The position numbers and the translations under genes are program-made. Below, one piece after another: positions 11,730 through 63,757 of a stretch of DNA of 64,000 bases (position 1 is the stretch's first letter; each line of letters begins with the position of its first letter). Origin of the DNA: a virus; the IMG/VR virus record IMGVR_UViG_3300017917_003822, positions 206,630 to 270,629 of that record, one strand, 5' to 3'. The notes under the pieces are model-generated. The model saw nothing but the letters and a program-made list of their open reading frames with translations. It did not search any database and was not told the DNA's origin.

Positions 11730-11738
11730 TATCGGGAT

Positions 11739-12267: not shown

Positions 12268-12280
12268 AAAAAGATAATAT

Positions 12281-12795: not shown

Positions 12796-12826
12796 TGCAT
12801 GGGAATTTTTTTTTGATATATAGTTC

Positions 12827-13564
12827 ATGCTAAAATACCTAAAGGAATATCACGAATTTGAATATTCACAAGAAACAGATCTTAATGAGGGGTTTCTCGG
12901 TGACATCAAGGACATATGGAACAGCTTCATGAGACTAGTCGAAAAAATACTCAAGGAGAAGAAGGCTGGTCAGAAAACAAAGACACCAACAGTAAAAAAA
13001 CCTTCACCCCTGGAGGGTCAACATATGTTATATCTTCCGCATCAACAGGGACCATCCGGTGCTGTTAAATTGGTAGATGTTTATAGAGGTAAAAAGAAAC
13101 TCGATCCAAACGACAGAACAAAGCTACTTAAGAATATGCCATCATCGGATCCAGGCTATCAAAAAGTTTTAAAAGGTAACGATAGGGAGGCGGTAACTGC
13201 TTTTCTGAATTACCAAAAAAATACATGGGATAATTATCAAAAGGAAGCTCTATCAAAAATAAAACTACCAGAAAATAAGGTAGTTAAAAAAGCGATAGAT
13301 AAGCTACCAAATCCAAATTTTCCTAAAGAATTTTTAACCACTGTGGCTTATAAGGAATCGAGATTTGTTCCAAATCCACCAACAAACAAAACATATAGAG
13401 GACTATTTCAAATAGGTCCTTCTGCGTGGGCACAATTAAAAAGAATAAACCCGGAAAAATATAAAGGATCTCTCCCACCAATAGATCCTATCAAAAACAC
13501 CCAAGCGGGTCACGATTATCTTAAGTGGACCTACGAACAATTTGAAAAGGACGTAAGGGTATAA
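12827..13564 (+). CDS. SLT-like (lytic transglycosylase-like) domain protein
   Basis: KESRFVPNPPTNKTYRGLFQIGPSAW resembles the SLT motif ES.FNP.A.S..GA.GLMQ. Paralogous to the 58931-59749 product. Confidence 0.45.
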   Translation: MLKYLKEYHEFEYSQETDLNEGFLGDIKDIWNSFMRLVEKILKEKKAGQKTKTPTVKKPSPLEGQHMLYLPHQQGPSGAVKLVDVYRGKKKLDPNDRTKLLKNMPSSDPGYQKVLKGNDREAVTAFLNYQKNTWDNYQKEALSKIKLPENKVVKKAIDKLPNPNFPKEFLTTVAYKESRFVPNPPTNKTYRGLFQIGPSAWAQLKRINPEKYKGSLPPIDPIKNTQAGHDYLKWTYEQFEKDVRV

Positions 13565-14143: not shown

Positions 14144-14174
14144 ATTCTATATATCGTAAAATTTTTTGAATTAA

Positions 14175-18939: not shown

Positions 18940-19584
18940 ATGAAAAACATTAAACTATTCGAAGATTTTAGTAACATACCGGATTTCAATGATATTATTG
19001 ATCAGGTCGTAAAATTCCTTGAGAAGGATAAGAAGGACCTGATTTCAGTTAACAAGATGCATATAATCATAAAAAAAGCTTTTGATTCGGTCACGTTGGC
19101 CGAATTATTTAGCTTTCTGAATAATCTGGGATATAAAATGACAATATATCCCGACATTTCACCCTCCTCAATGAATTCGAGATTTACTGTAAGTAAAATA
19201 AACTACAAGGATCCCATAGGTGATCTAAAATACGGTCTTAGTTTATTAATAGATTCAAAGTTAGGAGAAAAGCAGACTAAAACCTGCATTAACATATTGG
19301 GAAACAACATTGGAATAACCAGTCTGGGTAATTTCATGCAGGATATTTTAATCAAAAAAATCAACGACAATGAAATTGATTTGCTTTTCTGGAACGGGAA
19401 ATATTTAGTTACAGGCGAATTTGAACAGACGTCCATCCACCGGGAGGATGATATGGTTGCATTAGACTTTGAAAGCTACGAGACTTCAGATAAAAGAGAC
19501 TATATTCTTTCCGCTACTGCATCAGGATCTTGGGCGGCAGGATATGATATTGAACAAATCGAATATATAGATTTTTTAAATTAA
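18940..19584 (+). CDS. hypothetical protein with MKNIKLFEDF N-terminal motif
   Basis: N-terminus matches the recurring motif seen on the minus-strand block proteins. Confidence 0.4.
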   Translation: MKNIKLFEDFSNIPDFNDIIDQVVKFLEKDKKDLISVNKMHIIIKKAFDSVTLAELFSFLNNLGYKMTIYPDISPSSMNSRFTVSKINYKDPIGDLKYGLSLLIDSKLGEKQTKTCINILGNNIGITSLGNFMQDILIKKINDNEIDLLFWNGKYLVTGEFEQTSIHREDDMVALDFESYETSDKRDYILSATASGSWAAGYDIEQIEYIDFLN

Positions 19585-20525: not shown

Positions 20526-21329
20526 ATGGAGATAAAAAATTTTAATACCTGGATAACTGAATCTGAAGACCCGGATAATGGTATAGTAAACAAGGACCAC
20601 ATAGATAAATTAATCAACGATGTGGATTTTTTAAAAAGAGTACCCAAGGGAGATCTACGTTTTGAGGTTCTTAAAAACGGTCAGCAACCACCATTAAAGT
20701 TTTATCTAATTAGGATAATGACGCATGGAAGCCTCTATAGACAAATAAACAGGCTGCTGGATGAAACCGGATTTGATGTTGTACCCGATATGGTTGGTAA
20801 TTATATTACAATTACAATTTTAATTGATGATAGCCTTCCCGGAGGCGATTTTAAAATCAAACAGCTATATGACTGGAGTGAAAGACATAATATGACTGTT
20901 TTATCAAACCCGAAGAACTATGATCAATTAAAAAACGTTGTAGAGAAATCAATTGAACATATTTTCGAGAAAATAAAACAGGTTAGATTGATTGTCCCAT
21001 CAAACATAAGAAAGATTGAAGGATTCTCGGATAAGATTAAGGAGAGCGTAAAGTCCCTTTACGATGGTATAATTGATAATTTTATTGAGAATGGAAGTAT
21101 ACCAAACGAACTAATTGATGATGATATTCTGACTGAAATTTTCACTAAAACTCTTCATGAAAATCCACAGTACATTGAGAAAATAAACAATCTACCTCCA
21201 TCTGCTAAGAAGAGGATTTTTAAAAGCTCGTTGGATCTTTTCAAGGACGATAATATTGAAATAAATCAAAAAACTCTGAACGGCATAGTGGCGTTCTTCA
21301 AAGTTAAAAAAACATGGGGGATGATATGA
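20526..21329 (+). CDS. hypothetical protein
   Basis: 267-aa ORF. Confidence 0.4.
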   Translation: MEIKNFNTWITESEDPDNGIVNKDHIDKLINDVDFLKRVPKGDLRFEVLKNGQQPPLKFYLIRIMTHGSLYRQINRLLDETGFDVVPDMVGNYITITILIDDSLPGGDFKIKQLYDWSERHNMTVLSNPKNYDQLKNVVEKSIEHIFEKIKQVRLIVPSNIRKIEGFSDKIKESVKSLYDGIIDNFIENGSIPNELIDDDILTEIFTKTLHENPQYIEKINNLPPSAKKRIFKSSLDLFKDDNIEINQKTLNGIVAFFKVKKTWGMI

Positions 21330-37654: not shown

Positions 37655-37924
37655 TTATGAGTAGGGTTTATCCATCGTTGGGTAACCTGTTCTGTCCATA
37701 CATTTTTTAAGATACCCCATGGCCTCATTAATATATCCCTCATATGTGTGTGCCTCCTCCATATCATCGTGATAATCTTTAGCTTCCTTTGTCAGATACT
37801 CCTCACAAAGTTTTTCCATCTGCATTTTAGCAGATTCACTCATACAAGAACTTCCCTCCTGCATTCCGTAATTTTCCTGAATTTCGGAAATCCCGTAATT
37901 TTCATAAGATTGTAAATTTTTCAT
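37655..37924 (-). CDS. hypothetical protein
   Basis: 89-aa minus ORF. Confidence 0.35.
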   Translation of the reverse strand: MKNLQSYENYGISEIQENYGMQEGSSCMSESAKMQMEKLCEEYLTKEAKDYHDDMEEAHTYEGYINEAMGYLKKCMDRTGYPTMDKPYS

Positions 37925-37942: not shown

Positions 37943-38191
37943 TTATTGTTCGTCTCCAGTTTTTTTGGAATTTTTAGCTGAAAATATTTTTTCGATTACA
38001 GTTAAACCTAAACCACCACCTGCTATTAAAACAAGGGCATCAAACATAAACTCCGGAGTAACGAAATCCTTAGAATTTATTGTTGCAACCCAGGTTAAGA
38101 TTATCACATTAAATAATGCAAAAAGTGCGGCGAACCTCTTGCTAGAAGTATCACTTTGCCCCGAAAGTAGGTCGTTAAAAAACTTTTTCAT
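37943..38191 (-). CDS. small two-TM membrane protein (holin-like architecture, speculative)
   Basis: 82 aa with two hydrophobic helices and charged C-terminus SAKNSKKTGDEQ. Preferred over the overlapping + ORF 37965-38243. Confidence 0.3.
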   Translation of the reverse strand: MKKFFNDLLSGQSDTSSKRFAALFALFNVIILTWVATINSKDFVTPEFMFDALVLIAGGGLGLTVIEKIFSAKNSKKTGDEQ

Positions 38192-38246
38192 GTCTATTTT
38201 GGTTATTTTAATCTATATATCTGAAAATGACTTAAATATATAGTAC

Positions 38247-46245: not shown

Positions 46246-46530
46246 ATGAAAAAATTAATTTTTTTAATCTGCTTTATGTTTCTATTTTCTTGTCAGGAAA
46301 AAAAATACGAGCATATAGGTCAGGAGGTAATCGACGGTAAGGTCTCTGCTACTAAGGAGGGAAAGACAGCCTCATATGGGAGTCCAGCATATTCTCCAAA
46401 AATATGGGTACAAACACCAACAGAAACTAAAGAAGTGGAAATTCCATTTCGATACGAGGGGAGATGGAAAGTCGGTGACAGCTGCTTATTAATTATTGAA
46501 AAATATAAAGAAGTAACGGATGGAAAATAA
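46246..46530 (+). CDS. putative lipoprotein
   Basis: ATG at 46246 gives MKKLIFLICFMFLFSCQEKK (signal plus lipobox). Confidence 0.45.
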   Translation: MKKLIFLICFMFLFSCQEKKYEHIGQEVIDGKVSATKEGKTASYGSPAYSPKIWVQTPTETKEVEIPFRYEGRWKVGDSCLLIIEKYKEVTDGK

Positions 46531-47110
46531 GAATATATTCATATTACCCACAGACAGACCGACCTGGTTACATAAATCATTATTGAGTGGAATTTTAAGA
46601 AAATCATCAGCCTGTATTGGTGATATGAAACAAGCACAAGGGATGAATATCTATATTACTTCCAACGAAGAAATTAAAGAGGGTGATTGGTGTTTGGATG
46701 AAGATGGGTTAAAGAAATGTACTGCTCACGCAGGTGCTATGAATCATTATTTTGAAAAAATCATCCTAACAACAGACCAAGACTTAATCAACGATGGTGT
46801 ACAAGCTATTGATGATGAGTTTTTAGAATGGTTTGTTAAGAATCCAAGTTGTGATGAGGTTGAAGTTGGATATGGGCGGATTAGGCTCACCGAAACTGAC
46901 AATAAAGGATATTGGGTTGCTATTCCTAATGCAGAATTTAATATGCAAGAAGAAAAACCTAAACAAGAAAAATCTGAAGATAAATTCCAATCTTGGGATG
47001 AATTAATAAAAGAAGTAGGTGGTGAAAAAGAATTATTAAGAATACTAAAACTTCCACATATAGCACCTTTAGTCAGAGAAGCAATGAGGAGTAATTGTAA
47101 AAACAAATAA
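46520..47110 (+). CDS. paralog family A member 1
   Basis: Shares NIYITS(N/D)E(E/K)IKEGDW and ILTTDQDLI(N/K)DGVQAIDDEFLEWFVKNPSC with the two following genes. Confidence 0.45.
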   Translation: MENKNIFILPTDRPTWLHKSLLSGILRKSSACIGDMKQAQGMNIYITSNEEIKEGDWCLDEDGLKKCTAHAGAMNHYFEKIILTTDQDLINDGVQAIDDEFLEWFVKNPSCDEVEVGYGRIRLTETDNKGYWVAIPNAEFNMQEEKPKQEKSEDKFQSWDELIKEVGGEKELLRILKLPHIAPLVREAMRSNCKNK

Positions 47111-47199
47111 GACTATGATGGAAGACTTTTTACTTATTTTCGCAATAATCTATACCTTAATGTATGGATTAAAAATTTGGGAGGAAAACAAATAATGAT

Positions 47200-47913
47200 A
47201 TGAAAAACATACACGTATTACCAACAGAAAAAGCAAGCAATGGATATGTTCTTGGAAAATGTATCAAAGAATTATCAGATGTAAAAATAGGTCAATTTAC
47301 TAAAACCTATTATTTAATGTTTGATGAAAAATATTTTCAACCACATAACATCTACATTACTTCCGATGAAAAAATTAAAGAAGGAGATTGGTTCTTACCG
47401 CAAGGACATATAAATCCTCATAAACTAAAAGGATATAATAAAATCAATGGGGATTTAGAAAGTTATAATGGGTTATGTTATGATATTTCAAAATGTAAAA
47501 AAATCATCCTAACAACAGACCAAGATTTAATCAAGGATGGTGTACAAGCTATTGATAATGAGTTTTTAGAATGGTTTGTTAAGAATCCAAGTTGTGAGTG
47601 GGTTGAGGTTGAAATAGAATCAAAGTTTGACAGAGTTGATGGTCATTATCATGATGTGTGGGAAATAATCATTCCAAAAGAAGAAGCTAAACAAGAAACA
47701 CTTGAAGAAGCTGCAGAGAGATGGGTATTTGAAACAAATGGGCATAAATGGTCCAATAACGACGATAGCGCAGGGGACAATTTCGGATCTTTCGTTGCAG
47801 GTTCAAGGTGGAGATCTGATAATTCATACACTCTGGATGAATTAAAGGAGGCTTATTCTATGGGGAGATTAGGAAAATCGATCTCAGAATTCAACGAAAG
47901 ATTCAAAAATTAA
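47200..47913 (+). CDS. paralog family A member 2
   Basis: ~100 nt of DNA is near-identical with member 1 (46748-46850 vs 47506-47608). Confidence 0.45.
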   Translation: MKNIHVLPTEKASNGYVLGKCIKELSDVKIGQFTKTYYLMFDEKYFQPHNIYITSDEKIKEGDWFLPQGHINPHKLKGYNKINGDLESYNGLCYDISKCKKIILTTDQDLIKDGVQAIDNEFLEWFVKNPSCEWVEVEIESKFDRVDGHYHDVWEIIIPKEEAKQETLEEAAERWVFETNGHKWSNNDDSAGDNFGSFVAGSRWRSDNSYTLDELKEAYSMGRLGKSISEFNERFKN

Positions 47914-47916
47914 TCT

Positions 47917-48591
47917 ATGAAAAATTTACATATATTACCGACATCCAAACCAAGTAGATTATATGAATTTGGTGGTGCATATTATATTCAAGACAAGCCA
48001 CAAGAAAATTTTAGAAGTTATAATATCTACATCACTGGGGAGGAAAAAATTAGGATAGGGGATTGGGTAATTGATGATGATTATGACGAACCAGTATTAT
48101 ATAAAGCAGACAAATATTTTTTTGATATTGGTAAGGAAGCTAGAAAAATCATATTAACAACCGACACAGAATTAATTGACGGAGGGGTACAGAACATCCA
48201 AGATGTATTTTTAAGTTGGCTGATCCAGAATCCAACTTGTGAGAAGGTCGAGGTTAGAAAAAATCCAAAAGTGAGTGGAATAGTAAAAGGTTTGGGTATT
48301 AAAAGTTTCGACAACGGTTATAAAATAATAATACCCAAGAATAAGAATAAAGAAGAGAAAGTTAACGAACCTCAAAACTTAAAAAACTTTAAAAAATTAG
48401 ACAGTGCAGCCATGGACGATTCCATAAAGAAAAAAGAAGCAATTGACGGGATTATTGGGGGATTATTTAAGAAATATTCAAACAATACTTCACTAGCTGA
48501 GGGTGATTATGAACACCTAATGGATAGCGAAGATTTTAGAGAAGCTTCTATTGAATTGATTGAATGGTTAGAAAAATTTAAAAAGGAATAG
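47917..48591 (+). CDS. paralog family A member 3 (more diverged)
   Basis: MKNLHILPTSKPSRL...NIYITGEEKIRIGDW...ILTTDTELIDGGVQNIQDVFLSWLIQNPTC. Confidence 0.45.
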   Translation: MKNLHILPTSKPSRLYEFGGAYYIQDKPQENFRSYNIYITGEEKIRIGDWVIDDDYDEPVLYKADKYFFDIGKEARKIILTTDTELIDGGVQNIQDVFLSWLIQNPTCEKVEVRKNPKVSGIVKGLGIKSFDNGYKIIIPKNKNKEEKVNEPQNLKNFKKLDSAAMDDSIKKKEAIDGIIGGLFKKYSNNTSLAEGDYEHLMDSEDFREASIELIEWLEKFKKE

Positions 48592-49495: not shown

Positions 49496-49864
49496 ATGGA
49501 AAAAGAATTTATACCTTATGAACAGGCATTAGCTTTAAAAGAATTAGGATTTGATGAACCATGTTTTTGGTTATATGATGGAAAAATACTTAAAACTCAA
49601 ATTATACCAAGTAGTAATTCTGATTTTAAATATATTGATATAGTTCAAGCACCACTTAAACAACAAGCATTTAGATGGTTTAGAGAAAAGTATAAATTAT
49701 GTGGTTTAATTGAGATTGGAACACAAGAGTTTTCTTATCAAGTTTTTAATAATAAAGGGAATAGACAACTTGGAACTGAACCTATAAGCTATAATGGAAC
49801 CTACGAAGAAGCAGAACTTGAATGTTTAAAGAAACTAATTGAAATTGTTAAAGATAAGAAATAA
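49496..49864 (+). CDS. paralog family B member 1
   Basis: MEKEFIPYEQALALKELGFDEPCF...FRWFREKYKL...GTYEEAELECLKKLIEIVKDKK. Confidence 0.4.
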   Translation: MEKEFIPYEQALALKELGFDEPCFWLYDGKILKTQIIPSSNSDFKYIDIVQAPLKQQAFRWFREKYKLCGLIEIGTQEFSYQVFNNKGNRQLGTEPISYNGTYEEAELECLKKLIEIVKDKK

Positions 49865-50271
49865 TGGAAAAAGAATTTGTGCCTTATGAACAAGCACTAA
49901 CTTTAAAAGAACTTGGTTTTGATGAACCTTGTTTAGGTTACTACTTAACTAATTTGTTAACAAACGAAGTAAAACTATTTATTGATAATAGAACAGGACT
50001 TTCATCATTTGAAAAAACTACACCTGCTCCAACATTCTCTCAAGTATTTAGATGGTTTAGAGAGAAGTATAACTTGAGAGGATTTATTGGATTTAGACCA
50101 AATGTAAAAAAATTTGATTGTCATGTTTATGATATGTCTCTGTCTGGCAAAGAATATGTTGAACAAAGAACTATGGAAGAGTTTAACAAAGACCCTAAAG
50201 TTGGAACCTACGAAGAAGCAGAACTTGAATGTTTAAAGAAACTAATTGAAATTGTTAAAGATAAGAAATAA
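49864..50271 (+). CDS. paralog family B member 2
   Basis: C-terminal ~80 nt (including stop and next start) is identical to member 1 (49797-49875 vs 50204-50282). Confidence 0.4.
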   Translation: MEKEFVPYEQALTLKELGFDEPCLGYYLTNLLTNEVKLFIDNRTGLSSFEKTTPAPTFSQVFRWFREKYNLRGFIGFRPNVKKFDCHVYDMSLSGKEYVEQRTMEEFNKDPKVGTYEEAELECLKKLIEIVKDKK

Positions 50272-50777
50272 TGGAAAAAGAATTTATTCCTTACGAACAA
50301 GCATTAGTTTTAAAAGAATTAGGATTTGATGAACCTTGTTTTAAATATGTTTATATTGGAGATACTGGAAATAACTTTGATCATTATCTTGAAGTAGAAC
50401 CATCAAAGGCAAAAAATTATAATGAGGATGATTTATGTATATCACAGCCAACTTACTCAGCAGCATTTAGATGGTTTAGAGAGAAGTATAATATTCATCA
50501 TTCAATGAGACCCGTGGTTGGATCTAAAAATGGATACGACTCATATCCAATTTTGGGGTGGGAATCAGATATTTTTGCTACAAATCAAGGAACTCAAAAT
50601 TCATATTACATGGGATATCCGGTCTGTGAGTGGTTCACAGCAACACTAGATAATTTTGACGAGGGTGACACATTGAAGGATTTGAATTTAGATCCACTTA
50701 AATATGAAGAGGCAGAGCTTAAATGTTTAAAAAATATTATAAAATACGTCAAAAAAGAAAAGCTGAATGGAAGATAA
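50271..50777 (+). CDS. paralog family B member 3 (diverged C-terminus)
   Basis: Same N-terminus MEKEFIPYEQALVLKELGFDEPCF and the FRWFREKYN motif. Confidence 0.4.
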   Translation: MEKEFIPYEQALVLKELGFDEPCFKYVYIGDTGNNFDHYLEVEPSKAKNYNEDDLCISQPTYSAAFRWFREKYNIHHSMRPVVGSKNGYDSYPILGWESDIFATNQGTQNSYYMGYPVCEWFTATLDNFDEGDTLKDLNLDPLKYEEAELKCLKNIIKYVKKEKLNGR

Positions 50778-53633: not shown

Positions 53634-54245
53634 ATGGAATTTGTAAAAAAACCGGCATTTAATTATACACATCTCAAAGGATTGAGAAAATACATTAAGA
53701 ATACTAAAGGATTTATAGCCGGAGGGTGTTTTAAAGATATTTTTTCAGGAAAGAAACTTAGAGACGTCGATATTTTCTTCCCAACTGAGGAGGACTATAA
53801 CAAGGCACTTGAGATCTACACAAAAAAATGCAAGGGTAAAAAAGGGGGATTGAGTGAGATATACTCTAATGATAATTGCACAGGATACAGAGATTCCAAA
53901 AGAGGTATAAATATTGAGCTTATAAAATCTATATTTGGAAATCCGGAGGATGTTATTAATCAATTTGATTTTACTGTGGTTCAAGCGGCATATTTCAATC
54001 CGGAGGGGGACGAACCAATACAGTTCATATATCACCCGCAGTTTTTTGAACACCTAACCCTAAAAAGGTTGGTTGTTAACTCCGATAATATAGTAAAACC
54101 TGTCTCAACTCTAAACAGGGCATTTAAATATGCCGGGTATGGGTTTGGTTTATGTCGGGAGAGTAAGGTAACTTTGACTAAAGCTGTTATCGAGAGAGGA
54201 GTTGTTGACGATATTAACGGCGATCTTTATTTTGGATTCGATTAA
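53634..54245 (+). CDS. second nucleotidyltransferase with poly(A) polymerase/CCA-enzyme head-like motif
   Basis: KGFIAGGCFKDIFSGKKLRDVDIFFP follows the GG.hRD..hG....D.Dh head pattern, as in 31453-32196. Confidence 0.4.
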   Translation: MEFVKKPAFNYTHLKGLRKYIKNTKGFIAGGCFKDIFSGKKLRDVDIFFPTEEDYNKALEIYTKKCKGKKGGLSEIYSNDNCTGYRDSKRGINIELIKSIFGNPEDVINQFDFTVVQAAYFNPEGDEPIQFIYHPQFFEHLTLKRLVVNSDNIVKPVSTLNRAFKYAGYGFGLCRESKVTLTKAVIERGVVDDINGDLYFGFD

Positions 54246-54518: not shown

Positions 54519-54953
54519 ATGAGTAAAGTAAAGATTTCAACAGATAAGGGAGATATGATCGCGGAATTATATGATAAGGAAACTCCGATCACAGTAAACA
54601 ACTTTTTAAAGTTGATCAACGAGGGATTTTATAACGGATTGAATTTTCATCGAGTTATTCCAAATTTCGTTATCCAAGGAGGATGTCCAAATGGGACAGG
54701 TGCAGGTGGTCCTGGTTACACTATTCCGTGTGAGGTAACCGCACCTAATCAATACCATGACAGAGGAGTTTTATCCATGGCGCATGCAGGGCGTAATACC
54801 GGAGGATCTCAGTTCTTCATCTGTCACAGCAGACAAAACACTGCACACCTTGACGGAAACCACACATGCTTCGGTAAAGTTGTGGAGGGATTGGATATTA
54901 TAGATTCGATCCAAATGGGAGATAAAATTAATTCAATCACAGTAACAGAGTAA
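54519..54953 (+). CDS. cyclophilin-type peptidyl-prolyl cis-trans isomerase
   Basis: [29 protein letters not shown] and [10 protein letters not shown] are cyclophilin signatures. Confidence 0.85.
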
Positions 54954-55718: not shown

Positions 55719-56387
55719 TTATACTGAGTATTTCTTAGCGAGATTTGCAAGACCCTGAAATAATCCCTTCCAGTTTGGATCGAGTTTAATCAACTGATCC
55801 ATCGTAAAGTATGATGCGTTCTCCATCTGAAAATCCTCACCATTTCTTTTATAGACAGCAACAAATCCATTATATGCTCCTGGAGCAACTTTGAGATCCT
55901 GCTTTTTAACTTTATCAAAGGGAGAATGCCATTCAAAATTTAAAGCTTTCTGATCATACCCAACTGCAACATCAATAAAAACTGTTGGATAATATCGGTC
56001 ATCATATTTAGACTCCTGGGTTCTCGTAGCATACATCCAAACTCCAGCACCTTTTCTAGGTCCTGATGCTGACCAAGAAGCATCAGCCCATTTTTCAATC
56101 TTGAAAGTTGCAGGTTTTATTTGTCCCCATTCCGGTATTTTGAAATCCTTTCCACCATAAGCAGCAACTAAATTTTTGGTGTCCTGATAATATGCCTTGG
56201 ATTTATTCTTATCGGTGTAATACGGATCCTCATTAACTTTAGCCTGATCACCGCTTGCAAGCATATTCTCAACCTGAGATTTATAATCCGCAATGTCTGA
56301 AGTTTTTCCTTTTAATTCAGGAGCCTCCATTGCTTCCATTGATGCTGACTCGTTTAAAAAGTCATCAAATCTTAATAATTTATTCAT
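55719..56387 (-). CDS. hypothetical protein with MNKLLRFDDFLNES N-terminal motif
   Basis: 222-aa minus ORF. Confidence 0.4.
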   Translation of the reverse strand: MNKLLRFDDFLNESASMEAMEAPELKGKTSDIADYKSQVENMLASGDQAKVNEDPYYTDKNKSKAYYQDTKNLVAAYGGKDFKIPEWGQIKPATFKIEKWADASWSASGPRKGAGVWMYATRTQESKYDDRYYPTVFIDVAVGYDQKALNFEWHSPFDKVKKQDLKVAPGAYNGFVAVYKRNGEDFQMENASYFTMDQLIKLDPNWKGLFQGLANLAKKYSV

Positions 56388-56391
56388 TTTA

Positions 56392-56748
56392 TTATTTATT
56401 TTGTCTAATTAATAATTCCCCTAAGACCTCGATTTTACCAACAATCTCCTGGAAATCAACCTGTGATATGTTCATATCATTTTTTGTTGATGAGTAAAGA
56501 ACATCAAGAAGATCTTTATACTCCTTCTCTGCCTCTGCTCTGTCAAATTTCCCCTCCTTTGCTTTCTTATAAGTCGATAGTTTAACCTTAAAGTGGTGAT
56601 ATGTTAACATCGCATCGCCGCCTTTTTCTTTAGCTGAGTCAGCTATTTTGGTAGCTCCTGCCAATCTAGTAGCAGAAAATTCTTCGAACGTCTCCTTAGT
56701 TTTGGATTCGTTTAAAAATTGGTTGTATTTTTTAATTTGTTCGCTCAT
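56392..56748 (-). CDS. hypothetical protein with ...KKYNQFLNESK N-terminal motif
   Basis: Track start is TTG. ATG five codons in gives MSEQIKKYNQFLNESK. Confidence 0.4.
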   Translation of the reverse strand: MSEQIKKYNQFLNESKTKETFEEFSATRLAGATKIADSAKEKGGDAMLTYHHFKVKLSTYKKAKEGKFDRAEAEKEYKDLLDVLYSSTKNDMNISQVDFQEIVGKIEVLGELLIRQNK

Positions 56749-56781
56749 ACATCTATATATCAATAAAAAAAACCAGTTTTA

Positions 56782-56813
56782 TTTTTTTATTCCGAGATAA
56801 TATCTTATATTTG
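56782..56813 (+). promoter_or_regulatory. promoter-like motif copy 14
   Basis: TTTTTTT-ATTCCGAG-N9-TATATTTG. Divergent intergenic region. Confidence 0.4.
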
Positions 56814-56838
56814 TATAACAAATTTAAAATATTTTAAA

Positions 56839-57258
56839 ATGTACGTAAAAAAACCAGTAAACAGCGCAGCACCATCTAATAACAAGATCTGGACAGCTGA
56901 AGAAGATGCTATTTTAAGAAAAATGGCTGAAGAAAAATCAACAACAGCAAAAATTGCTAAAGCTCTAGGAAGAACTAAAGCTTCAATTTGGGGCAGAAAA
57001 AGCATTCTAGGAATCAAAACTCGTTTGCTATCTTCTAAAGGACACAACATTTCGGTTCCAACAACTCTTTCTACAAAAAACAGAGGAGCAAAATCGAAAG
57101 TGAACAGCTCACCGAAAAACGTGGTTAAGGTCTCTACTCAATCAAACAAATCACAGGCTGCAGTTGAAAAATCTTATCAGGGTATGTGTTACGAGTTTGA
57201 TATGCTATCTAAATTAGCTAAACAAACTGGTGCTAAAATCGTTGTTACCTTCGAATAA
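56839..57258 (+). CDS. SANT/Myb-like DNA-binding domain protein (possible regulator)
   Basis: WTAEEDAILRK...IAKALGRTKASIWGRK resembles a Myb/SANT repeat. S/K-rich tail. Confidence 0.3.
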   Translation: MYVKKPVNSAAPSNNKIWTAEEDAILRKMAEEKSTTAKIAKALGRTKASIWGRKSILGIKTRLLSSKGHNISVPTTLSTKNRGAKSKVNSSPKNVVKVSTQSNKSQAAVEKSYQGMCYEFDMLSKLAKQTGAKIVVTFE

Positions 57259-57283
57259 GAAGGAACGAATAATCTTATTAAAA

Positions 57284-57311
57284 AGCCTGATGAGTCATCA
57301 GGCTTTTTTTA
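57284..57311 (+). terminator. rho-independent terminator
   Basis: AAGCCTGATGA-G-TCATCAGGCTT hairpin plus T7. Confidence 0.5.
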
Positions 57312-57327
57312 TGTAGATATATAAAGC

Positions 57328-57789
57328 ATGTTTAAATTTATTAGAACCTTCGACGATTACGACACGCCAATTTTACCATCCGGATTAAGTATAACTAAAG
57401 ACGGAATAGAAAATTTGGCAAATAGTTTTTTGGAAGAGATAGAGAAGAATTATAATATAGGGAGAAATAAGCCATTCGACAAAAAGATTGGGAACTGTGC
57501 TTGGTTCACCGAATCATTTTACGAGTGGAGCGAGATTAATAATGTACCAGCTAGAATCATATATTTTCCAGAAACTCAAAAGGCCAAGGATGCACACATA
57601 GCAATTCTGATTGGCGGATATGTTCTGGACTTCACACATAAACAATTTAGTAAGGATCCCAAAGATAATTTCTCAATCAACAAAGTTGACCACTATAAAA
57701 AATTCGGATATGATGTTGATGATGCGGAGGTGGTCGACGAATTTCCTTCCTGGATTGATGACATTCACCCGCCAAAAGAAAAAAAATAA
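57328..57789 (+). CDS. hypothetical protein
   Basis: 153-aa ORF. Confidence 0.35.
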   Translation: MFKFIRTFDDYDTPILPSGLSITKDGIENLANSFLEEIEKNYNIGRNKPFDKKIGNCAWFTESFYEWSEINNVPARIIYFPETQKAKDAHIAILIGGYVLDFTHKQFSKDPKDNFSINKVDHYKKFGYDVDDAEVVDEFPSWIDDIHPPKEKK

Positions 57790-57794
57790 GACAC

Positions 57795-58610
57795 ATGAAA
57801 CACATTCAACTATTCGAATGGTTTTTGAAAACAAGAGAACCGGAGGAAATTCTTAGATGGGACAAACCAATCAACAACCCATTGAAGCAGGGAAGATTTA
57901 AAGACGTTATTGTCAATTCAAAGAGAGTTTCTCCGAGAACAACCAAGGGGGTAAGAACCCTAGCAAGAGAAATGTATGAATTTCCAAACGATAAAGAATT
58001 ACTTAGAGATGTTAAATACATGACTAATTTATCAGACCGAGAAATTTCCACTCTGGTTGACTATGGACTTTCTCATATGCCCGCTAAAATAGACCTTATG
58101 GATTATGATACAATCCTTATACCCCAAACTGGATCTAAGATAGTTTATAAAATTCTAGATTCACTTTATAACGTTGAGACTGAATTTGGATCAAATAAGA
58201 AAACTCAGTGGAACCCTAAAGTTTATGATAACGCCTTCATAAAAAGAAAATGGAAAGACGTTGAGTGGAACATGGATTTAATTAACAAGACCGGTGAGAA
58301 AACTAAAAACGATGTTCTTAATATGATCGAGAGGCTAAAAACACAAAAAGGCAACGAGGATGCTAAATTAGGGGGAAATGTGATACCAATCTATAGAAAA
58401 TTTCTTGATAAGTTCATGGATATTAATCCAGAAATAGCTAAGGATCTGGCTGGAAAAAGGGTAATTATTCTGGACGATTTTGTAACAGATGGTGCGACTA
58501 GAAAACAGATGAGAAATTTAACGATTCCATATGGACCAAAGTCAATTCTAAATTTAGCTTTATTCCACATAAGAGGTCAAAAGAGAGAATCAGACCCTGA
58601 CTACGAATAA
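57795..58610 (+). CDS. hypothetical protein with MKHIQLFEWF N-terminal motif
   Basis: 271-aa ORF. Confidence 0.4.
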   Translation: MKHIQLFEWFLKTREPEEILRWDKPINNPLKQGRFKDVIVNSKRVSPRTTKGVRTLAREMYEFPNDKELLRDVKYMTNLSDREISTLVDYGLSHMPAKIDLMDYDTILIPQTGSKIVYKILDSLYNVETEFGSNKKTQWNPKVYDNAFIKRKWKDVEWNMDLINKTGEKTKNDVLNMIERLKTQKGNEDAKLGGNVIPIYRKFLDKFMDINPEIAKDLAGKRVIILDDFVTDGATRKQMRNLTIPYGPKSILNLALFHIRGQKRESDPDYE

Positions 58611-58639
58611 TCGATATATACAATAAATAAAAACTCAAT

Positions 58640-58930
58640 ATGTTACAAGGAAATAATTGCTATCGTTTAGTTGCAAGTACGAATTATCAACCAGGTGCTA
58701 CTGGTGCCACTGCGGGACCAACCTTAATGGAAGGACCAATTACATTAGTTTATGTTGCTCCTGGAGCAGCGGTCTTGGATTTTTATGATGCCAAGAATAA
58801 TAGGAATACGATTAATATAGGATCTACCAATACAGGTGTGCTTTTACCAATTACTGTTACCGCAACAGGATCAAGTTTATCTGGTACCATCTTTGGATTC
58901 TCACAAGGTGGAATCTATGCTAATAGATAA
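58640..58930 (+). CDS. Gly/Thr/Ala-rich small protein
   Basis: 96-aa ORF. Confidence 0.35.
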   Translation: MLQGNNCYRLVASTNYQPGATGATAGPTLMEGPITLVYVAPGAAVLDFYDAKNNRNTINIGSTNTGVLLPITVTATGSSLSGTIFGFSQGGIYANR

Positions 58931-59749
58931 TTAGGCTAGATTTTTAGCCCAAGATGCTATATTTAAGGAGGCAAGAGTTCTAGGTCCTAGAGTTTTCTTA
59001 AACTCCTTGATATTATCTTTTAGTGTTTGTATTCCAGCACTTGCATTATCATCTGCACTAAATATATTACCGCCAGGGACGTATTTGTTAAATCCAGGTT
59101 GACTTAGAGCATACAGACCTTTATATTTATTATTACCTGCCTTAGGATTAAATCCTGATTCTATCTTAGCTACAGTTGTTGCAAAATCAAAGGGAACACC
59201 GAACTTGGAGCTGTATTTCTGTATGGTTTGTTTAACTGCGGAGTTTTGTGGTTTATTGATATCGATTTTAGCCTGTTCTCCCTGTTTTTTCCATTTTTCT
59301 TTCCACATATTTAAGAAGAGAGCAGCAGCTGTTTTTTGATCTCCAGCATCAAGAGCTTTGATGATTGATGTCTTAACTTGAGGTTTATCGCTAGGAATAT
59401 TCTTTACTAGATTTGCGTATTTAACACCTCCCTTAGTTTTAATTGTGTCAGGTGCAAGTTTACCTGTACCCAAAGAAGCCTCTATTAAACCCTTAGCACC
59501 AGCTATTCCCTGTTGGTGCTGCATATAAAGTGTGAAATCATCGTTACCTGGGATTGGATTGAAGTCGGCAGGTAAAAAGGCTCCTTGTGAAGTATCGGAT
59601 ACCCCGGTGTCATCCGCCTTTTGTTTCTTAAGCTCTTCCGCTTTTTTCTGTGCTTCTATTTCCATATTACCCAGCATCGGAGCTATAGCTGACAAGAAAC
59701 TTCCAGTTCCTTCATTGATAAATTCTTCAAAAGATGATATTTTCTTCAT
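58931..59749 (-). CDS. SLT-like domain protein, paralog of 12827-13564, with MKKISSFEEFINE N-terminus
   Basis: YMQHQQGIAGAKGL and TVAKIESGFNPKAGNNKYKGLYALSQPGF parallel the + strand paralog (YLPHQQGPSGAVKL; TVAYKESRFVPNPPTNKTYRGLFQIGPSAW). Confidence 0.45.
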   Translation of the reverse strand: MKKISSFEEFINEGTGSFLSAIAPMLGNMEIEAQKKAEELKKQKADDTGVSDTSQGAFLPADFNPIPGNDDFTLYMQHQQGIAGAKGLIEASLGTGKLAPDTIKTKGGVKYANLVKNIPSDKPQVKTSIIKALDAGDQKTAAALFLNMWKEKWKKQGEQAKIDINKPQNSAVKQTIQKYSSKFGVPFDFATTVAKIESGFNPKAGNNKYKGLYALSQPGFNKYVPGGNIFSADDNASAGIQTLKDNIKEFKKTLGPRTLASLNIASWAKNLA

Positions 59750-59785
59750 ATGATGTTTATTGATTGTACTATATATCCAAAAAAA

Positions 59786-59817
59786 GACGGAAGTAGCGAA
59801 TTTCCGTCTTATATGTA
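59786..59817 (-). terminator. minus-strand hairpin terminator
   Basis: On the minus strand, AAGACGGAA-ATTCGCTAC-TTCCGTCTT followed by T7. Confidence 0.4.
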
Positions 59818-59881
59818 GTCGTAACTACTCCGGTCCTAAAATGGGGCACTGAGCCCGCCGGATATGTTTTAATGTGATAGT

Positions 59882-60334
59882 TTATTCTTCGTGAGCCAAA
59901 ACTCTTTTTAATCTACCCAATTCTCTAACCATGTCCTTATTTGTGTTATCCTCCAATACTATTTTGGGTGATTGTGATTCTTTATTTCCGACGGTATCCA
60001 GAACGATAGCATTTCTTTTTCTTGTTATACCCATATTCATGATCTTTTGGATCTGAATTGCAATCTCTTCCTCTCTTTCTATGATTTTGTTCGTACATTC
60101 TCTCTGTCCTCTGATTAATTCAAGATTAAGACGGGAAGTTTCGTTTTGTAATACACGTATTTGTGCTGATTGCTTCTCCAATGTGACATTAACATCATCA
60201 GGTGTACCTTTGATTGCTTTAATCAAATCGCTACCATTAGTCATTAGCACGATTGAAAATAGCAATAACAATAATGCAATCACTCTTTGTTGAGGTGTAA
60301 ATTTACCTAATATTTCTGATACGTAACTTAGCAT
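59882..60334 (-). CDS. membrane-anchored coiled-coil protein
   Basis: TM segment VIALLLLLFSIVLM near the N-terminus. Confidence 0.4.
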   Translation of the reverse strand: MLSYVSEILGKFTPQQRVIALLLLLFSIVLMTNGSDLIKAIKGTPDDVNVTLEKQSAQIRVLQNETSRLNLELIRGQRECTNKIIEREEEIAIQIQKIMNMGITRKRNAIVLDTVGNKESQSPKIVLEDNTNKDMVRELGRLKRVLAHEE

Positions 60335-60474
60335 AATTATTTCTTATTTATATTAAAATCCCTCGGACCTCATTTTTTATTCTTAAATTTGTCAACAATG
60401 AAAAATAATAAAATTACAAAAAATGGTGAGAGTATAATAAGAACAGACTCGGAGTGATACATTTCTGTGAATTA

Positions 60475-60828
60475 TTAACGTCTTAGAAATGCAAGATCTC
60501 TACCGCCTCTTTCACCTCCGTGCATCTTAGCCATTACAAGACCAAATAAAAACGCGTTAAACGCTTCGTAATGATCCGTAGCGTAAATTACATTGTTATC
60601 TATTGCTACACCTGATTGTCCGTCTGTGGTGTGTCTAATTGATAAATTTGGATATAATCTCTTAACATCCGATTCCAATTTAGCTCTCATTGCTTCTTGT
60701 TCTCTGTTTGCAACCGTATGATCCGCTGGAGAAGCAACATCGGTAGTTCCAGTAGATGTAGTCTGTGGTAGATTAGACATCTCAGGGGATTCGTTTACGA
60801 AGTTCTCGTATACTTTTAAATTTTCCAT
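60475..60828 (-). CDS. hypothetical protein with MENLKVYENFVNES N-terminal motif
   Basis: Internal ATG (CAT at 60826-60828) preferred. The track extension overlaps the upstream gene. Confidence 0.35.
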   Translation of the reverse strand: MENLKVYENFVNESPEMSNLPQTTSTGTTDVASPADHTVANREQEAMRAKLESDVKRLYPNLSIRHTTDGQSGVAIDNNVIYATDHYEAFNAFLFGLVMAKMHGGERGGRDLAFLRR

Positions 60829-60847
60829 CTCAAAAATCTGATATTTT

Positions 60848-61153
60848 TTATAAGTTCCAAGCAGGATTTGCAATTATGAGGATATCTCCCTCTATTCTAG
60901 GTAACTCCTTTGTTGAGTGATAATCATCATACTTTATCTGGTCAGGATAAAATTTCTTCCCATTAAAAACTATATAGTTATCCTCGGATCTTTCACCCTC
61001 ACCTCTAAGACTAAAATCATTTGTTTTTAGGACATCATGAGTTGCAGATTTAATGGTGGGTTTACCGAAGATGCTGTCCCAGAAGCTCTCGTTTACATCA
61101 GCATTTTCTGTAACTACTCCTCTGAAATCTTCGTATTTTTTAATGTTTTCCAT
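60848..61153 (-). CDS. hypothetical protein with MENIKKYEDF N-terminal motif
   Basis: 101-aa minus ORF. Confidence 0.35.
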   Translation of the reverse strand: MENIKKYEDFRGVVTENADVNESFWDSIFGKPTIKSATHDVLKTNDFSLRGEGERSEDNYIVFNGKKFYPDQIKYDDYHSTKELPRIEGDILIIANPAWNL

Positions 61154-61200
61154 GTGATATTTTTTCTTTATATATCACATAACAAATAGAGAAAGATTGA

Positions 61201-62190
61201 TTAGATGAGATCCTTGAGATTGTTATATCTTCTAAGGTTGGAGTATTTTTTAATCTCATCCTCCGAGAGATATGGGTTATCCTGAAACATATGAATCTGG
61301 TCCTCAATCGGTATTTTCTTCCAGACCTTAGAAAGGCCCATCCCGTAATCACCCTTCTCCTTTTTCATCGAGTTAAAGACCACTTTCAAGGTCTTCTCAC
61401 TTACTACGTTTCCTTTAAAGTTGAGTTGTCTTAGTGTTAAATTGATAGGTGCACCTTTTACAGATATTAACTGATTGAACGAAACATCTAGCCAATCAGT
61501 GATTTCCGGACATCCAATTAAATCCGTGAGTTGATTATAGGAGCATTTGAGAGATTCCATTTTTTTAACTCTTAGCCCAGAAAGTGATGTGATTGCATTT
61601 TTATTGCAGCTCATTGATTCAACCTTTATTGGTGCTCCTTCTAGACTTTTGAGTTCATTATATGAGCAATCGTAGTTATCAAGGACTTTAACCGGTCCAC
61701 CCTTAAGGGACTTAAGCTTATTATGTGACCCATCAAATCTTCTACATTTTTTTGGAAAATTCGGCCAGAATTTTGAAACCTTGCAAGATCTGATTGATAT
61801 CGAGGAAATGAATGAAAATTTGATACCCCTAGCTATCTTGGCATCTTTCTCTCTTTGTTTTTTCTCCTTAGCGCTTTCTTTATTCCATGTCCTGGAAGAT
61901 AAACCCCAGTCATCGGAGTACATGTGATCGATTACCACACCTCCATTTTCAGAATCAATATACCAGTTATTACTGGAACCATCAAGCAATCTGATCCCGT
62001 CCTCGGTTAGGCTATCACTTTTTCTGTATTTGTCGAATAAAAAATCCGATGCTGCAATGATCTGTGCATGTTGTTCAGGATGGTCCTTACTCATGCCAGA
62101 TATGAGATTCTCCAGTGCGGTTTTTTGTGAAGAGGTCCACTTAAATCTTCTCTCAATCATATCTACAATTCTAATAATGAATATCATCAT
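61201..62190 (-). CDS. leucine-rich repeat (LRR) protein
   Basis: Tandem ~22-aa repeats CSYNELKSLEGAP / CSYNQLTDLIGCP / VSFNQLISVKGAP / CNKNAITSLSGL. Confidence 0.5.
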   Translation of the reverse strand: MMIFIIRIVDMIERRFKWTSSQKTALENLISGMSKDHPEQHAQIIAASDFLFDKYRKSDSLTEDGIRLLDGSSNNWYIDSENGGVVIDHMYSDDWGLSSRTWNKESAKEKKQREKDAKIARGIKFSFISSISIRSCKVSKFWPNFPKKCRRFDGSHNKLKSLKGGPVKVLDNYDCSYNELKSLEGAPIKVESMSCNKNAITSLSGLRVKKMESLKCSYNQLTDLIGCPEITDWLDVSFNQLISVKGAPINLTLRQLNFKGNVVSEKTLKVVFNSMKKEKGDYGMGLSKVWKKIPIEDQIHMFQDNPYLSEDEIKKYSNLRRYNNLKDLI

Positions 62191-62234
62191 TATAGATAAT
62201 TGGGATGCGTGGGTTTCGGTAAAAAAATAGTGAT

Positions 62235-62741
62235 TTATTCTAGTGCGTGATTCTCCCAGTGGCCTTCAGGATAACTTGGATTCACGTAACAGATGTAATC
62301 TGTCCAGCCATTTCCTTTATCATCTTTCCAGTGGTTATAGACTGCATCCTCGTCCATGAATGGCACGTAACCAGACTTCTTAAGCAACTCAACGAACCAT
62401 TTTAGTAGATCCCGTTTGAATTCCTCAGGTTTCTCTCCTTCCAACGAGATCTGACATGCGATCCAAGGTGTTCTCATGGCTTTACCTGGTGAGTCCGGAT
62501 CGCCATAAGCAAGTAACTCTGGATAAAACACCATTGTGGTTTTATTAACCCAGTCCCTGTTCTTAGCATCAGGATTGATCTCAAATGGAGTCTTAACTTC
62601 CAAAACACCCTCATCAACAACCTCACATTCTGGATTTTGTAACATTTTATCGACCAATTCCTTGATCTCAGCATCAAGTTCAGCCGATACGTTGATCAAC
62701 GACTCGTTGATGAAGCTATTGAAATTTAATATTCTGATCAT
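62235..62741 (-). CDS. hypothetical protein with MIRILNFNSFINES N-terminal motif
   Basis: 168-aa minus ORF. Confidence 0.4.
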   Translation of the reverse strand: MIRILNFNSFINESLINVSAELDAEIKELVDKMLQNPECEVVDEGVLEVKTPFEINPDAKNRDWVNKTTMVFYPELLAYGDPDSPGKAMRTPWIACQISLEGEKPEEFKRDLLKWFVELLKKSGYVPFMDEDAVYNHWKDDKGNGWTDYICYVNPSYPEGHWENHALE

Positions 62742-62742
62742 C

Positions 62743-63030
62743 TTATTTCTTTTTATCAGTTTTAAACTTTTTGATGAATCTTTCTCTTCTACCCTTGTCC
62801 TCGCCTAAACCTGTGCCTGATATCATGTCCCTAACATCATATTTTTCTTTATGATCCTTATTAGCTTTCACGTATGCTGCTAGTTTTTCGGCATCTATGT
62901 CGTTGTCGTCGATGAAATTCTGAATTGAATTCTGTCCGGATCCAGTGATCTGATGAATATAAACAGCCTCCATTGAAACTTTCTCATTCAGAAAGTTCTC
63001 GTATAGTTCAATGTGTTTCATGTTTTTCAA
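62743..63030 (-). CDS. hypothetical protein with MKNMKHIELYENFLNE N-terminal motif
   Basis: 95-aa minus ORF. Confidence 0.35.
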   Translation of the reverse strand: MKNMKHIELYENFLNEKVSMEAVYIHQITGSGQNSIQNFIDDNDIDAEKLAAYVKANKDHKEKYDVRDMISGTGLGEDKGRRERFIKKFKTDKKK

Positions 63031-63044
63031 TTTTATATTTATGT

Positions 63045-63290
63045 TTATTCTATTACTCCATCGGTTCCATCCAGACTATCATGAACTGAATTAAGGCCAT
63101 TCACTGCTGAGGTTAATTTGGAATACATCCATGGGGACAGCTGTTGTCCTTTATTTACTCTATCCAGAATCATGTTGGCGTAATCTGAGATTCGTTCCAA
63201 ATCTCCTTTTGCCATCCTATTTAACCCATCGACAACCTCCTGTGGGGTTCTTTCAGCTGAAAATTCCTCTAGTAGTTTAATATTTTTCAT
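63045..63290 (-). CDS. hypothetical protein with MKNIKLLEEFSAE N-terminal motif
   Basis: 81-aa minus ORF. Confidence 0.35.
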   Translation of the reverse strand: MKNIKLLEEFSAERTPQEVVDGLNRMAKGDLERISDYANMILDRVNKGQQLSPWMYSKLTSAVNGLNSVHDSLDGTDGVIE

Positions 63291-63292
63291 GA

Positions 63293-63757
63293 TTATGATT
63301 TGTGATTTAATGTTTCAAAAACAACCTTCTGTTCCTGTAGATAAACGTCAGTGTCAACATAAACCATACCCAGATGATTCTCTTTGTCACGATCACTGAT
63401 GTCGGTGATGGAAAGCAAGGTTACATTCACTTTCTCACCTTTTCTACCCTGCATCATTAGCTGGTAGTCATTCAACCAATACTGGCTGTTGTGAATTCTA
63501 TATGTTGGACGATCTGGTGAATTTCCATTCGGTCTCACATCGAAATACTGATAGTGAACAAACATCGTACTTCCATAGAATGAAAAAACTCTTCTCTCTG
63601 CTTCATCTACAGTTGCTGCAGTTTTGGGCATGAGAGATGCAAAGAAAGCAGGATCTATCTCATTCTCAACATCAAGCTCCTTCGGATCAAATCTGTCGAT
63701 TGTCATCTCATTTAGAACGCTACCTGAGAAGTCCTCGTATAGTGCAATGTGTTTCAT
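63293..63757 (-). CDS. hypothetical protein with MKHIALYEDFSG N-terminal motif
   Basis: 154-aa minus ORF. Confidence 0.4.
   Translation of the reverse strand: MKHIALYEDFSGSVLNEMTIDRFDPKELDVENEIDPAFFASLMPKTAATVDEAERRVFSFYGSTMFVHYQYFDVRPNGNSPDRPTYRIHNSQYWLNDYQLMMQGRKGEKVNVTLLSITDISDRDKENHLGMVYVDTDVYLQEQKVVFETLNHKS

Follow-up and report, generated by a model that had tools for sequence, protein, structure and literature searches.

The closest described counterpart of the element treated here is the capsid targeting sequence (CTS) of bacteriophage T4. The element is a 13-residue N-terminal peptide, here called the tag, which heads 11 open reading frames (ORFs) in a stretch of 64,000 nucleotides of viral DNA (IMG/VR record IMGVR_UViG_3300017917_003822, positions 206,630 to 270,629); this whole stretch is referred to as the window. 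The T4 internal proteins IPII and IPIII start with MKTYQEFIAE and IPI with MKTFKEF (read from NC_000866), and in mutagenesis of the CTS, residues 4 and 7 proved to govern targeting, and residues 8 and 10 processing (PMC9026906). The tag has the same arrangement of an aromatic residue at position i, a second one at i+3, an aliphatic residue at i+4 and a glutamate at i+6 (MKT-YQEFIAE versus MKNIKL-FEDFLNE). As in T4, it is a short peptide directly after the first methionine of unrelated, fast-evolving, often small and clustered proteins. The variable-length form seen in IPI (MKTFKEF...ITE) has its match in the window protein that starts at 63293 (MKHIALYEDFSGSVLNE), and contigs bearing the motif also encode a gp21-family protease and a gp23-type capsid protein. 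In T4, the CTS is carried by IPI, IPII, IPIII and Alt, and the prohead protease gp21 takes it off.

The consensus itself, MKHIKLFEQFINE, is not that of the T4 decapeptide. It is three residues longer (13 instead of 10), contains a conserved I-K-L insert, has asparagine instead of alanine before the glutamate and differs at most positions, the spacing alone being common to both. Further differences are that a genome has far more carriers (here, 64 kb hold at least 11, and in the related locus L004 they make up 11 of the 32 genes), a cargo of more than 100 families that includes enzymes, internal copies of the tag at module junctions, and a protease fused to a scaffold-like tail of about 400 residues.

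Other phages offer partial parallels. T4 gp24 is listed among the head proteins with a propeptide of 10-20 residues (PMC5694885). Its N-terminus, MAKINELLRE, resembles the start of the major capsid protein (MCP) of the lineage described below, M-A-N-L-I-N-E-A-E, which shares the [LI]-N-E site of the tag but does not contain the two aromatic residues. In phiKZ, 201phi2-1 and SPN3US, N-terminal propeptides address ejection or inner-body proteins to the head and are cut after glutamate by a gp21-related protease, and the N-termini of paralogs are conserved (PMC5694885). These propeptides differ from the tag in being mostly longer than 100 residues, in sharing no short motif and in their site, A/S/G-x-E as opposed to [LIV]-x-E. 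Internal virion (ejection) proteins with a lytic transglycosylase domain, such as those of the T7 gp16 type, are comparable to an SLT-domain protein that is predicted inside the capsid here, but they belong to the core, are large and have no shared tag that could be cleaved off.

A shared N-terminus on 11 proteins of the window

Eleven ORFs of the window carry the consensus M-[KE]-x-[IL]-K-x-[FY]-E-x-F-[LIV]-N-E at residues 1-13 (Table 1; carriers are denoted by their first coordinate). An earlier note on this DNA had described them as otherwise unrelated proteins with a common start. All 11 are present at the coordinates and with the N-termini given there, and the shared tag is far above chance. 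Anchored on both aromatic residues, the N-termini align without gaps as M-[KE]-[NH]-[IL]-K-L-[FY]-E-[DN]-F-[LIVS]-N-E-S, and the copies begin at residue 1-3 in every carrier. For a leave-one-out (LOO) analysis, a position-specific scoring matrix (PSSM) was built from ten members and the eleventh was scored, with the 130 called ORFs of the window, at all positions, as background. The members scored 9.0-23.6 bits, with the match always starting at residue 2 or 3. The best 13-mer among non-members, at 10.9 bits, is a second, internal copy of the tag inside carrier 56392, and the runner-up scored 9.5 bits. In the shuffled window, 0.00 matches to a degenerate DNA pattern of the motif are expected.

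The bodies of the carriers are indeed mutually unrelated by BLASTP, apart from the SLT paralogs 12827 and 58931 (E 2e-19) and a weak likeness of 60475 to 62743. Recognizable domains are found in only two of the 11: carrier 57795 has a weak phosphoribosyltransferase-like end, and 58931 has an SLT lytic transglycosylase domain (a match to PF01464), in line with the SLT-like putative transglycosylase that the earlier note lists among the carriers. The latter also weakly matches the PHROG “internal virion protein with endolysin domain”. For carrier 60475, the ATG at 60828 is a better start than the upstream TTG at 60873, and for carrier 62743 the ATG at 63021 (MKHIELYENFLNE) is preferable to the TTG at 63030. 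Weaker copies that had been noticed on 12827, 20526 and 21314 are real, though degenerate, and further degenerate tags are present on 37655 (-), 38247 (+), 41557 (-) and 57328 (+).

Eight of the carriers have an [LIV]-[NT]-E tripeptide ending at residues 13-17, while in 18940, 57795 and 63045 the sole hydrophobic-x-Glu (h-x-E) site is L-[FL]-E inside the motif core. The earlier claim that each carrier contains [LIV]-x-E within its first 8-16 residues holds for ten of them; it fails for 63045, which has only the core L-L-E at residues 6-8, narrowly outside this range.

Position of the tag relative to the folded domain

The SLT carrier 58931 has more than 240 metagenome homologs, some of them on contigs of 330-373 kb. 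Nearly all open with M-x-K-I-K-S-F-x-E-F-[ILV]-N-E, and the 30-60 residues that follow are wholly different. In an alignment of 51 orthologs E13 is invariant, F10 and N12 are conserved in more than 90 %, and columns 14-67 are unconserved. The AlphaFold model of the carrier, calculated with the SLT alignment, has a predicted local distance difference test (pLDDT) score below 50 over residues 1-30 and above 90 in the body, which starts at about residue 65. Alignment and model together indicate that the tag sits outside the folded domain and that conservation stops at the glutamate of the putative cleavage site. When genome contigs were scanned with the SLT family, all matches were SLT domains of bacteria, chiefly Bradyrhizobium and other Alphaproteobacteria, which gave no hint of a host. 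For carrier 55719, a relative was not found in IMG/VR, and a search there for an exact 41-mer gave no match.

Close relatives of the window retain the entire carrier set (locus L004), whereas those further removed have arrays of their own. In locus L207, eight carriers at or above 9 bits and several degenerate copies lie within 20 kb, and locus L213 contains seven tandem paralogs of leucine-rich repeat (LRR) type, all of which begin with MKRI[IV]NYKTF[IV]NES. An LRR-like protein is also found in the carrier cluster of the window (61201-62190, minus strand), without a tag. The tandem paralogs of about 300 residues on the related contigs (L213, 698-7047; L207, 951-7252), up to seven and all tagged, are similar to it in size. 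On a 373-kb relative (L002), which with a GC content of 37 %, as opposed to the 27-30 % reported for 'Jug' gut phages, is probably not one of these, a CHAP-domain protein (11487-12308) is tagged as well, with alanine before the glutamate as in T4 (MEKLKSFSEFLAEA). It lies about 660 bp downstream of the SLT protein, with two small genes on the opposite strand between them.

A lineage-wide trait of uncultured phages

The earlier note had described the tag in one genome. This is valid for the window, and the scope can now be extended to many uncultured phages. A degenerate DNA pattern for M-x-x-h-K-x-[FY]-x-x-F-h-N-E matched at least 119 IMG/VR stretches, and gene calling on these motif-seeded loci identified 1439 genes, of which 211 are N-terminal carriers that often lie in tandem; the contigs measure 5-675 kb. 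Motif-seeded and portal-seeded loci were pooled into a set of about 255 non-redundant carriers from 197 loci, with a median protein length of 151 residues. Their logo reads M K H I K L F E [EQD] F [ILV] N E; past the glutamate there is no conservation, and the position after it is usually filled by a small residue, S, A, G or N being the commonest. A profile of the 11 window N-termini, searched against 1.84 billion proteins, gave 18 significant matches, and in 12 of these the match lies at residue 1. Rather than being peculiar to the window genome, the motif is lineage-wide.

Several of the proteins matched in the profile search contain internal copies of the tag at module junctions. Internal copies are seen in 56392-56748 of the window (residues 16-28) and in the proteins P0138, P0139, P0141, P0142, P0151 and P0152. 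Metagenomic homologs of 62743 have this protein's domain joined to other modules, with an internal K-x-F-[LV]-x-x-F-V-N-E-S as the link. From its placement in these sequences, the tag may also act as a polyprotein junction.

Is the tag then common to all phages with T4-like heads? A control lineage with such a head, obtained by re-ranking the portal scan on the portal of locus L074, comprises 79 loci (855 kb, 1013 genes), is comparably AT-rich, and has an unfused gp21 of 240 residues and few copies of the promoter-like box described below. It contains one N-terminal PSSM match of at least 9 bits. The tag is therefore lineage-specific and not general to T4-like heads. In AT-rich genomes, genes tend to start with codons for Lys, Asn and Ile, and the motif could in principle be an artefact of AT-rich, MK-rich composition. 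This explanation is refuted by LOO scores of 9-24 bits against a background maximum of 10.9, by zero matches expected in shuffles and by the control lineage, to which the 18 matches of the profile search can be added; its probability is negligible.

Could the motif have been met before in cultured phages? Megablast of the carrier cluster against 50,697 phage records gave no match, tblastn of a 28-residue consensus tag against cultured phages gave a chance match only, and the motif is not printed in any paper of the literature searched. In the 462-kb record LR756500, one carrier was found within the 50 kb around the head genes, which is the part examined.

The cargo is diverse. The 184 carriers of at least 140 residues fall into 116 sequence clusters, and most cluster representatives have no Pfam match. 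Pfam matches among the others include RimK-type ATP-grasp, adenylate kinase, Tad3 (a Thoeris inhibitor), ART-PolyVal, NUDIX, CHAP, SLT, RNase_T, PAP2 and GNAT. Such cargo fits effectors that are injected and vary from phage to phage, as IPI and Alt of T4 do.

T4-type head genes and the candidate protease

The motif-seeded loci contain homologs of T4 gp20, gp21, gp23 and gp18, confirmed as Portal_T4, Peptidase_S77 and Gp23, with T4-like replication genes adjoining. The sole type of head gene seen on motif-bearing contigs is the T4 type, namely a gp20 portal, a gp23 capsid protein and an S77 (gp21-family) protease with a scaffold-like tail, and the lineage also encodes a gp55-type late sigma factor and homologs of gp4 and gp2. 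In 78 portal-seeded loci the order is fixed: portal, an acidic protein of about 115 residues, S77 protease with a tail of about 400 residues, MCP, and a variable protein. The protein between portal and protease opens with the motif core MK-x-x-K-T-F-E-x-F in all 38 alignable sequences, and the same 38 keep h-x-E immediately ahead of the conserved mature portion, whatever insertions or deletions they have; on the full 13-mer, a score of at least 9 bits is attained by about 31 of 54. The protein following the MCP is often tagged too. The start of the MCP, M-A-N-L-I-N-E-A-E, is nearly invariant across diverged MCPs (loci L128-L205). In the protease tail, [LIVM]-[NSA]-E occurs at 672 sites versus 200 in shuffles (3.4-fold), with repeats such as Y-L-A-E-K, as would be expected from the sequence of a scaffold that is degraded by the protease.

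We considered whether the tag might be a recognition peptide for a process other than capsid packaging, such as docking to a phage chaperone, tail or baseplate delivery, or export of wall enzymes. The SLT and CHAP murein hydrolases among the carriers are of a kind that is tail-borne or lytic in many phages, some cargo looks cytoplasmic, and several carriers have no h-x-E end. However, the tag was not seen on sheath or tail genes of the portal-seeded loci, whereas it is present on the conserved portal-protease protein and on the post-MCP protein. The survival of the h-x-E junction through insertions and deletions and a spacing equal to that of the experimentally mapped T4 CTS also speak against such a process, which we regard as unlikely. 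A Sec, Tat or lipoprotein signal in particular was rejected from reading the sequences: the tag is acidic and amphipathic, has no hydrophobic core and is followed by polar linkers, and the true lipoprotein signals of the window look different.

Which protease would cut the tag? The earlier note proposed the ClpP encoded at 11061-11729, and ClpP-family head proteases exist in other phages. The tag could then be a degron or adaptor signal for this full-length ClpP, either for timed degradation or with ClpP as the maturation protease. The protein is, however, a canonical Clp protease (Pfam, 186.9 bits), and no portal, capsid, scaffold or other head gene was identified in the 64-kb window, although most of the immediate ClpP neighbours were unscanned against family libraries. 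Where tagged head proteins are encoded in motif-bearing loci, the adjacent protease is of the S77 gp21 type (56 of the 78 portal loci), and S77 fits these proteases better than S80. Among 25 listed of the 50 matched Pfam families adjoining carriers, S77/S80 is the only protease family and no Clp appears. In addition, h-x-E specificity is that of gp21-type enzymes (PMC5694885). A role of ClpP as the maturation protease is not supported by these findings and, like its recognition of the tag as a degron, is very unlikely.

Because no head gene was identified in the window or could be reached for its clade, the S77 protease in the window's own genome is inferred. The neighbourhoods centred on the SLT gene on contigs of 332, 373 and 159 kb contain no head genes within 10 kb. 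The nearest direct link of the window to a T4-type head module is the 92-kb IMG/VR contig 3300009507_000012, which encodes a tagged homolog of carrier 63293 (56 % identity), the protease-scaffold tail followed by the MANLINEAE MCP at the contig start, and T4-like replisome genes.

A promoter-like box shared with head genes

The octamer GATATATA occurs ten times in the window, versus 4.0 expected. All ten copies lie 12-30 nucleotides upstream of an ATG on the same strand, with a mode of 12, and seven precede genes with a tag or degenerate tag. The other three precede the untagged genes 58640 (+), 37943 (-) and 13565 (-). A hairpin and a T-run often stand ahead of the box, for example at 12827, 56392, 57328 and 58931. 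The gene at 37943-38191 (-) encodes a small membrane-type protein; a homolog (28 % identity) is found in the unrelated, tag-less lineage with T4-like heads, at 3898-4140 of L074, about 750 bp downstream of the portal with one gene in between.

In the portal loci, the box precedes the portal (31/72), the core protein (26/54), the protease (42/56) and the post-MCP gene (24/32) with the same sharp mode of 12 nucleotides; it precedes 55 % of carriers versus 19 % of non-carriers, and none of 47 MCP genes. The 12-nucleotide spacing suggests very short or absent mRNA leaders, and the box is probably a gp55-type late promoter, judging from the sequences. Because the same box stands at the same spacing before portal, protease and core genes, it would tie the window to the lineage of the portal loci and the carriers to head-gene expression, presumably late.

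Spacing and cassette structure bear on the idea that the feature acts as RNA or DNA, as an element for leaderless or short-leader translation or as a recombination handle for cassette shuffling, with the peptide incidental. The promoter/stem-loop (PeSL) cassettes of T4-like phages reportedly carry early promoters at the DNA level, and several carriers here likewise have a hairpin, T-run and promoter box directly before the ATG. The box is only 12 nucleotides from many ATGs, implying very short leaders, and the Lys codons of the tag are somewhat biased to AAA (87-89 % versus 72 %). On the other hand, tag codons vary synonymously among the window carriers, and across the lineage synonymous codon choice for the conserved F, E and N follows background usage, which indicates that selection acts on the peptide and not on the DNA, a difference from PeSL cassettes. 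Moreover, the tag is found with the box at 12 nucleotides, at 23-30 nucleotides, or box-less inside operons; portal and protease genes stand behind the same box without a tag; and internal copies occur mid-protein in fusions. We judge a role as nucleic acid to be highly improbable.

A probable capsid targeting propeptide

We consider it likely that the 13-residue tag does in this lineage what the capsid targeting propeptide does in T4, under a new consensus, and that it is cut by a gp21-family protease. The interpretation is well supported because the tag has the spacing of the T4 CTS, conservation stops at the glutamate, the protein between portal and protease is tagged, and the promoter box is common to carriers and head genes. 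The earlier note had arrived at a T4-like propeptide trimmed at h-x-E; this stands with regard to spacing, glutamate boundary, position outside the fold, T4-type heads and promoter box, while packaging, cleavage, binding to the scaffold core and ejection are inferred by analogy with T4.

In the proposed mechanism, carrier genes would be transcribed from the GATATATA promoter that they have in common with head genes, probably a gp55-type late promoter. The tag, free and unstructured, would use its two aromatic residues to bind the scaffolding core while the prohead assembles, and the cargo would be enclosed in the prohead. There, the gp21-family (S77) prohead protease would cut after the glutamate of [LIV]-x-E, freeing the mature protein inside the head, which would later be ejected with the DNA. 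The cargo would amount to a large, fast-evolving arsenal of murein hydrolases (SLT, CHAP), LRR arrays, ADP-ribosyltransferase, Thoeris inhibitor, nucleotide-handling enzymes and small orphans.

Several observations weigh against this interpretation. The window holds no identified head gene, and in its clade, contigs of 319-373 kb (IMGVR_UViG_3300024239_000013, 319 kb, whose SLT protein is 73 % identical; Ga0492746_0000002, 333 kb; Ga0453726_0000001, 373 kb), the head module was not reached. Some cargo proteins are ordinary metabolic enzymes with no obvious role in the capsid (adenylate kinase, RimK-type ATP-grasp, and a HAD-like phosphatase labelled from its sequence only). The tag was not found in any cultured phage for which virion proteomics exist, and Tenacibaculum phage PTm1 has none in the 30 kb around its head genes. 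The head-module protein of about 115 residues shows no homology to T4 gp67 or gp68 in hhalign and no match in PHROGs or Pfam. Finally, cleavage may not be universal among carriers, because three of the 11 (18940, 57795 and 63045) and many relatives in locus L207 have no [LIV]-x-E past the second aromatic residue.

Other features of the window

In the remainder of the window no structural gene was identified; it consists of accessory genes of a large phage, among them two RNA ligases, a Thg1-like enzyme, a CCA/poly(A) polymerase, ClpP, an SPFH protein and an M28 peptidase. Genes at 6604-8326, 16418-17560, 26365-27138 and 31453-32196 may together serve RNA/tRNA repair; they encode a T4 Rnl1-type ligase, a metallophosphatase, a second RNA ligase with an OB domain, a Thg1-like guanylyltransferase and the head domain of a CCA/poly(A) polymerase. 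Just upstream of the carrier cluster, 53634-54245 encodes a Gad2-family protein (PF26128) and 54519-54953 a peptidyl-prolyl isomerase, labels that come from precomputed Pfam matches on an identical 10.6-kb Logan contig ending about at the window end, which was the only match of an exact-protein look-up. Two triplets of tandem paralogs (46520-48591 and 49496-50777; 34-47 % identity) have shared N-termini of their own (MKNIHVLPT... and MEKEFIPYEQAL...), which are unlike the tag.

Table 1. Tag carriers, degenerate tags and promoter-like boxes in the window
Feature	Coordinates	Strand	Remarks
Tag carrier, 214 residues, MKNIKLFEDFSNIP	18940..19584	+	LOO 22.9 bits; no family match; GATATATA box 12 nucleotides upstream
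Tag carrier, 222 residues, MNKLLRFDDFLNES	55719..56387	-	LOO 11.6 bits
Tag carrier, 118 residues, MSEQIKKYNQFLNES	56392..56748	-	Internal second copy; GATATATA box 13 nucleotides upstream
Tag carrier, 271 residues, MKHIQLFEWFLKT	57795..58610	+	Weak phosphoribosyltransferase-like C-terminus, PF00156 22.2 bits, below cut-off
Tag carrier, 272 residues, MKKISSFEEFINEG	58931..59749	-	SLT domain from about residue 65, PF01464 27.9 bits; GATATATA box 28 nucleotides upstream
Tag carrier, 117 residues, MENLKVYENFVNES	60475..60828	-	PSSM and alignment
Tag carrier, 101 residues, MENIKKYEDFRGVVTE	60848..61153	-	GATATATA box 23 nucleotides upstream
Tag carrier, 168 residues, MIRILNFNSFINES	62235..62741	-	60 % homolog on a 248-kb IMG/VR contig (L121)
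Tag carrier, 92 residues, MKHIELYENFLNEK	62743..63021	-	Domain elsewhere fused to other modules via internal tag copies
Tag carrier, 81 residues, MKNIKLLEEFSAER	63045..63290	-	PSSM; profile-search protein P0140
Tag carrier, 154 residues, MKHIALYEDFSGSVLNE	63293..63757	-	56 % homolog on contig with gp21-type scaffold tail and gp23-type MCP
Degenerate tag (MLKYLKEYHEF...DLNE), second SLT protein	12827..13564	+	PF01464 39.8 bits; paralog of 58931; box 12 nucleotides upstream
Degenerate tag, MEIKNFNTWITESE	20526..21329	+	Box 12 nucleotides upstream
Degenerate tag, MKNLQSYENYGISE	37655..37924	-	5.1 bits
Degenerate tag, MFKFIRTFDDYDT	57328..57789	+	Box 12 nucleotides upstream
GATATATA promoter-like boxes	12815-12822, 18928-18935, 20514-20521, 57316-57323, 58613-58620	+	
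GATATATA promoter-like boxes	56754-56761, 59770-59777, 61169-61176, 38214-38221, 14148-14155	-	

Implications

Could one short sequence rule pick out the head-packed, injected proteins of large uncultured phages? If the tag works as proposed, it would do so for a set of proteins that is otherwise accessible only via virion proteomics of cultured phages. The carriers, most of which belong to no known family, would then supply ready candidates for anti-defence proteins and for effectors that act early, and the GATATATA box is a testable promoter for the same class of genes. The tag also suggests a portable means of loading foreign proteins into such capsids. Under the same condition, the T4 principle of capsid targeting, known mainly from T-even coliphages, would extend with a different consensus to a distant and environmentally abundant lineage.

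A wider proposal, to which we give somewhat less than an even chance, is that every protein packaged and injected by the phages of a large, abundant and uncultured lineage, with T4-like heads and genomes of up to about 370 kb or more, is addressed by the tag as a universal zip code. The DNA would be accompanied by over 100 unrelated families of cargo, among them anti-defence proteins such as a Thoeris inhibitor, ADP-ribosyltransferases, LRR arrays, nucleotide-modifying enzymes and wall hydrolases, and internal tags would make some of the cargo polyproteins that are cut apart by the head protease inside the capsid. If this is true, the first-strike arsenal of such phages would be readable directly from sequence.

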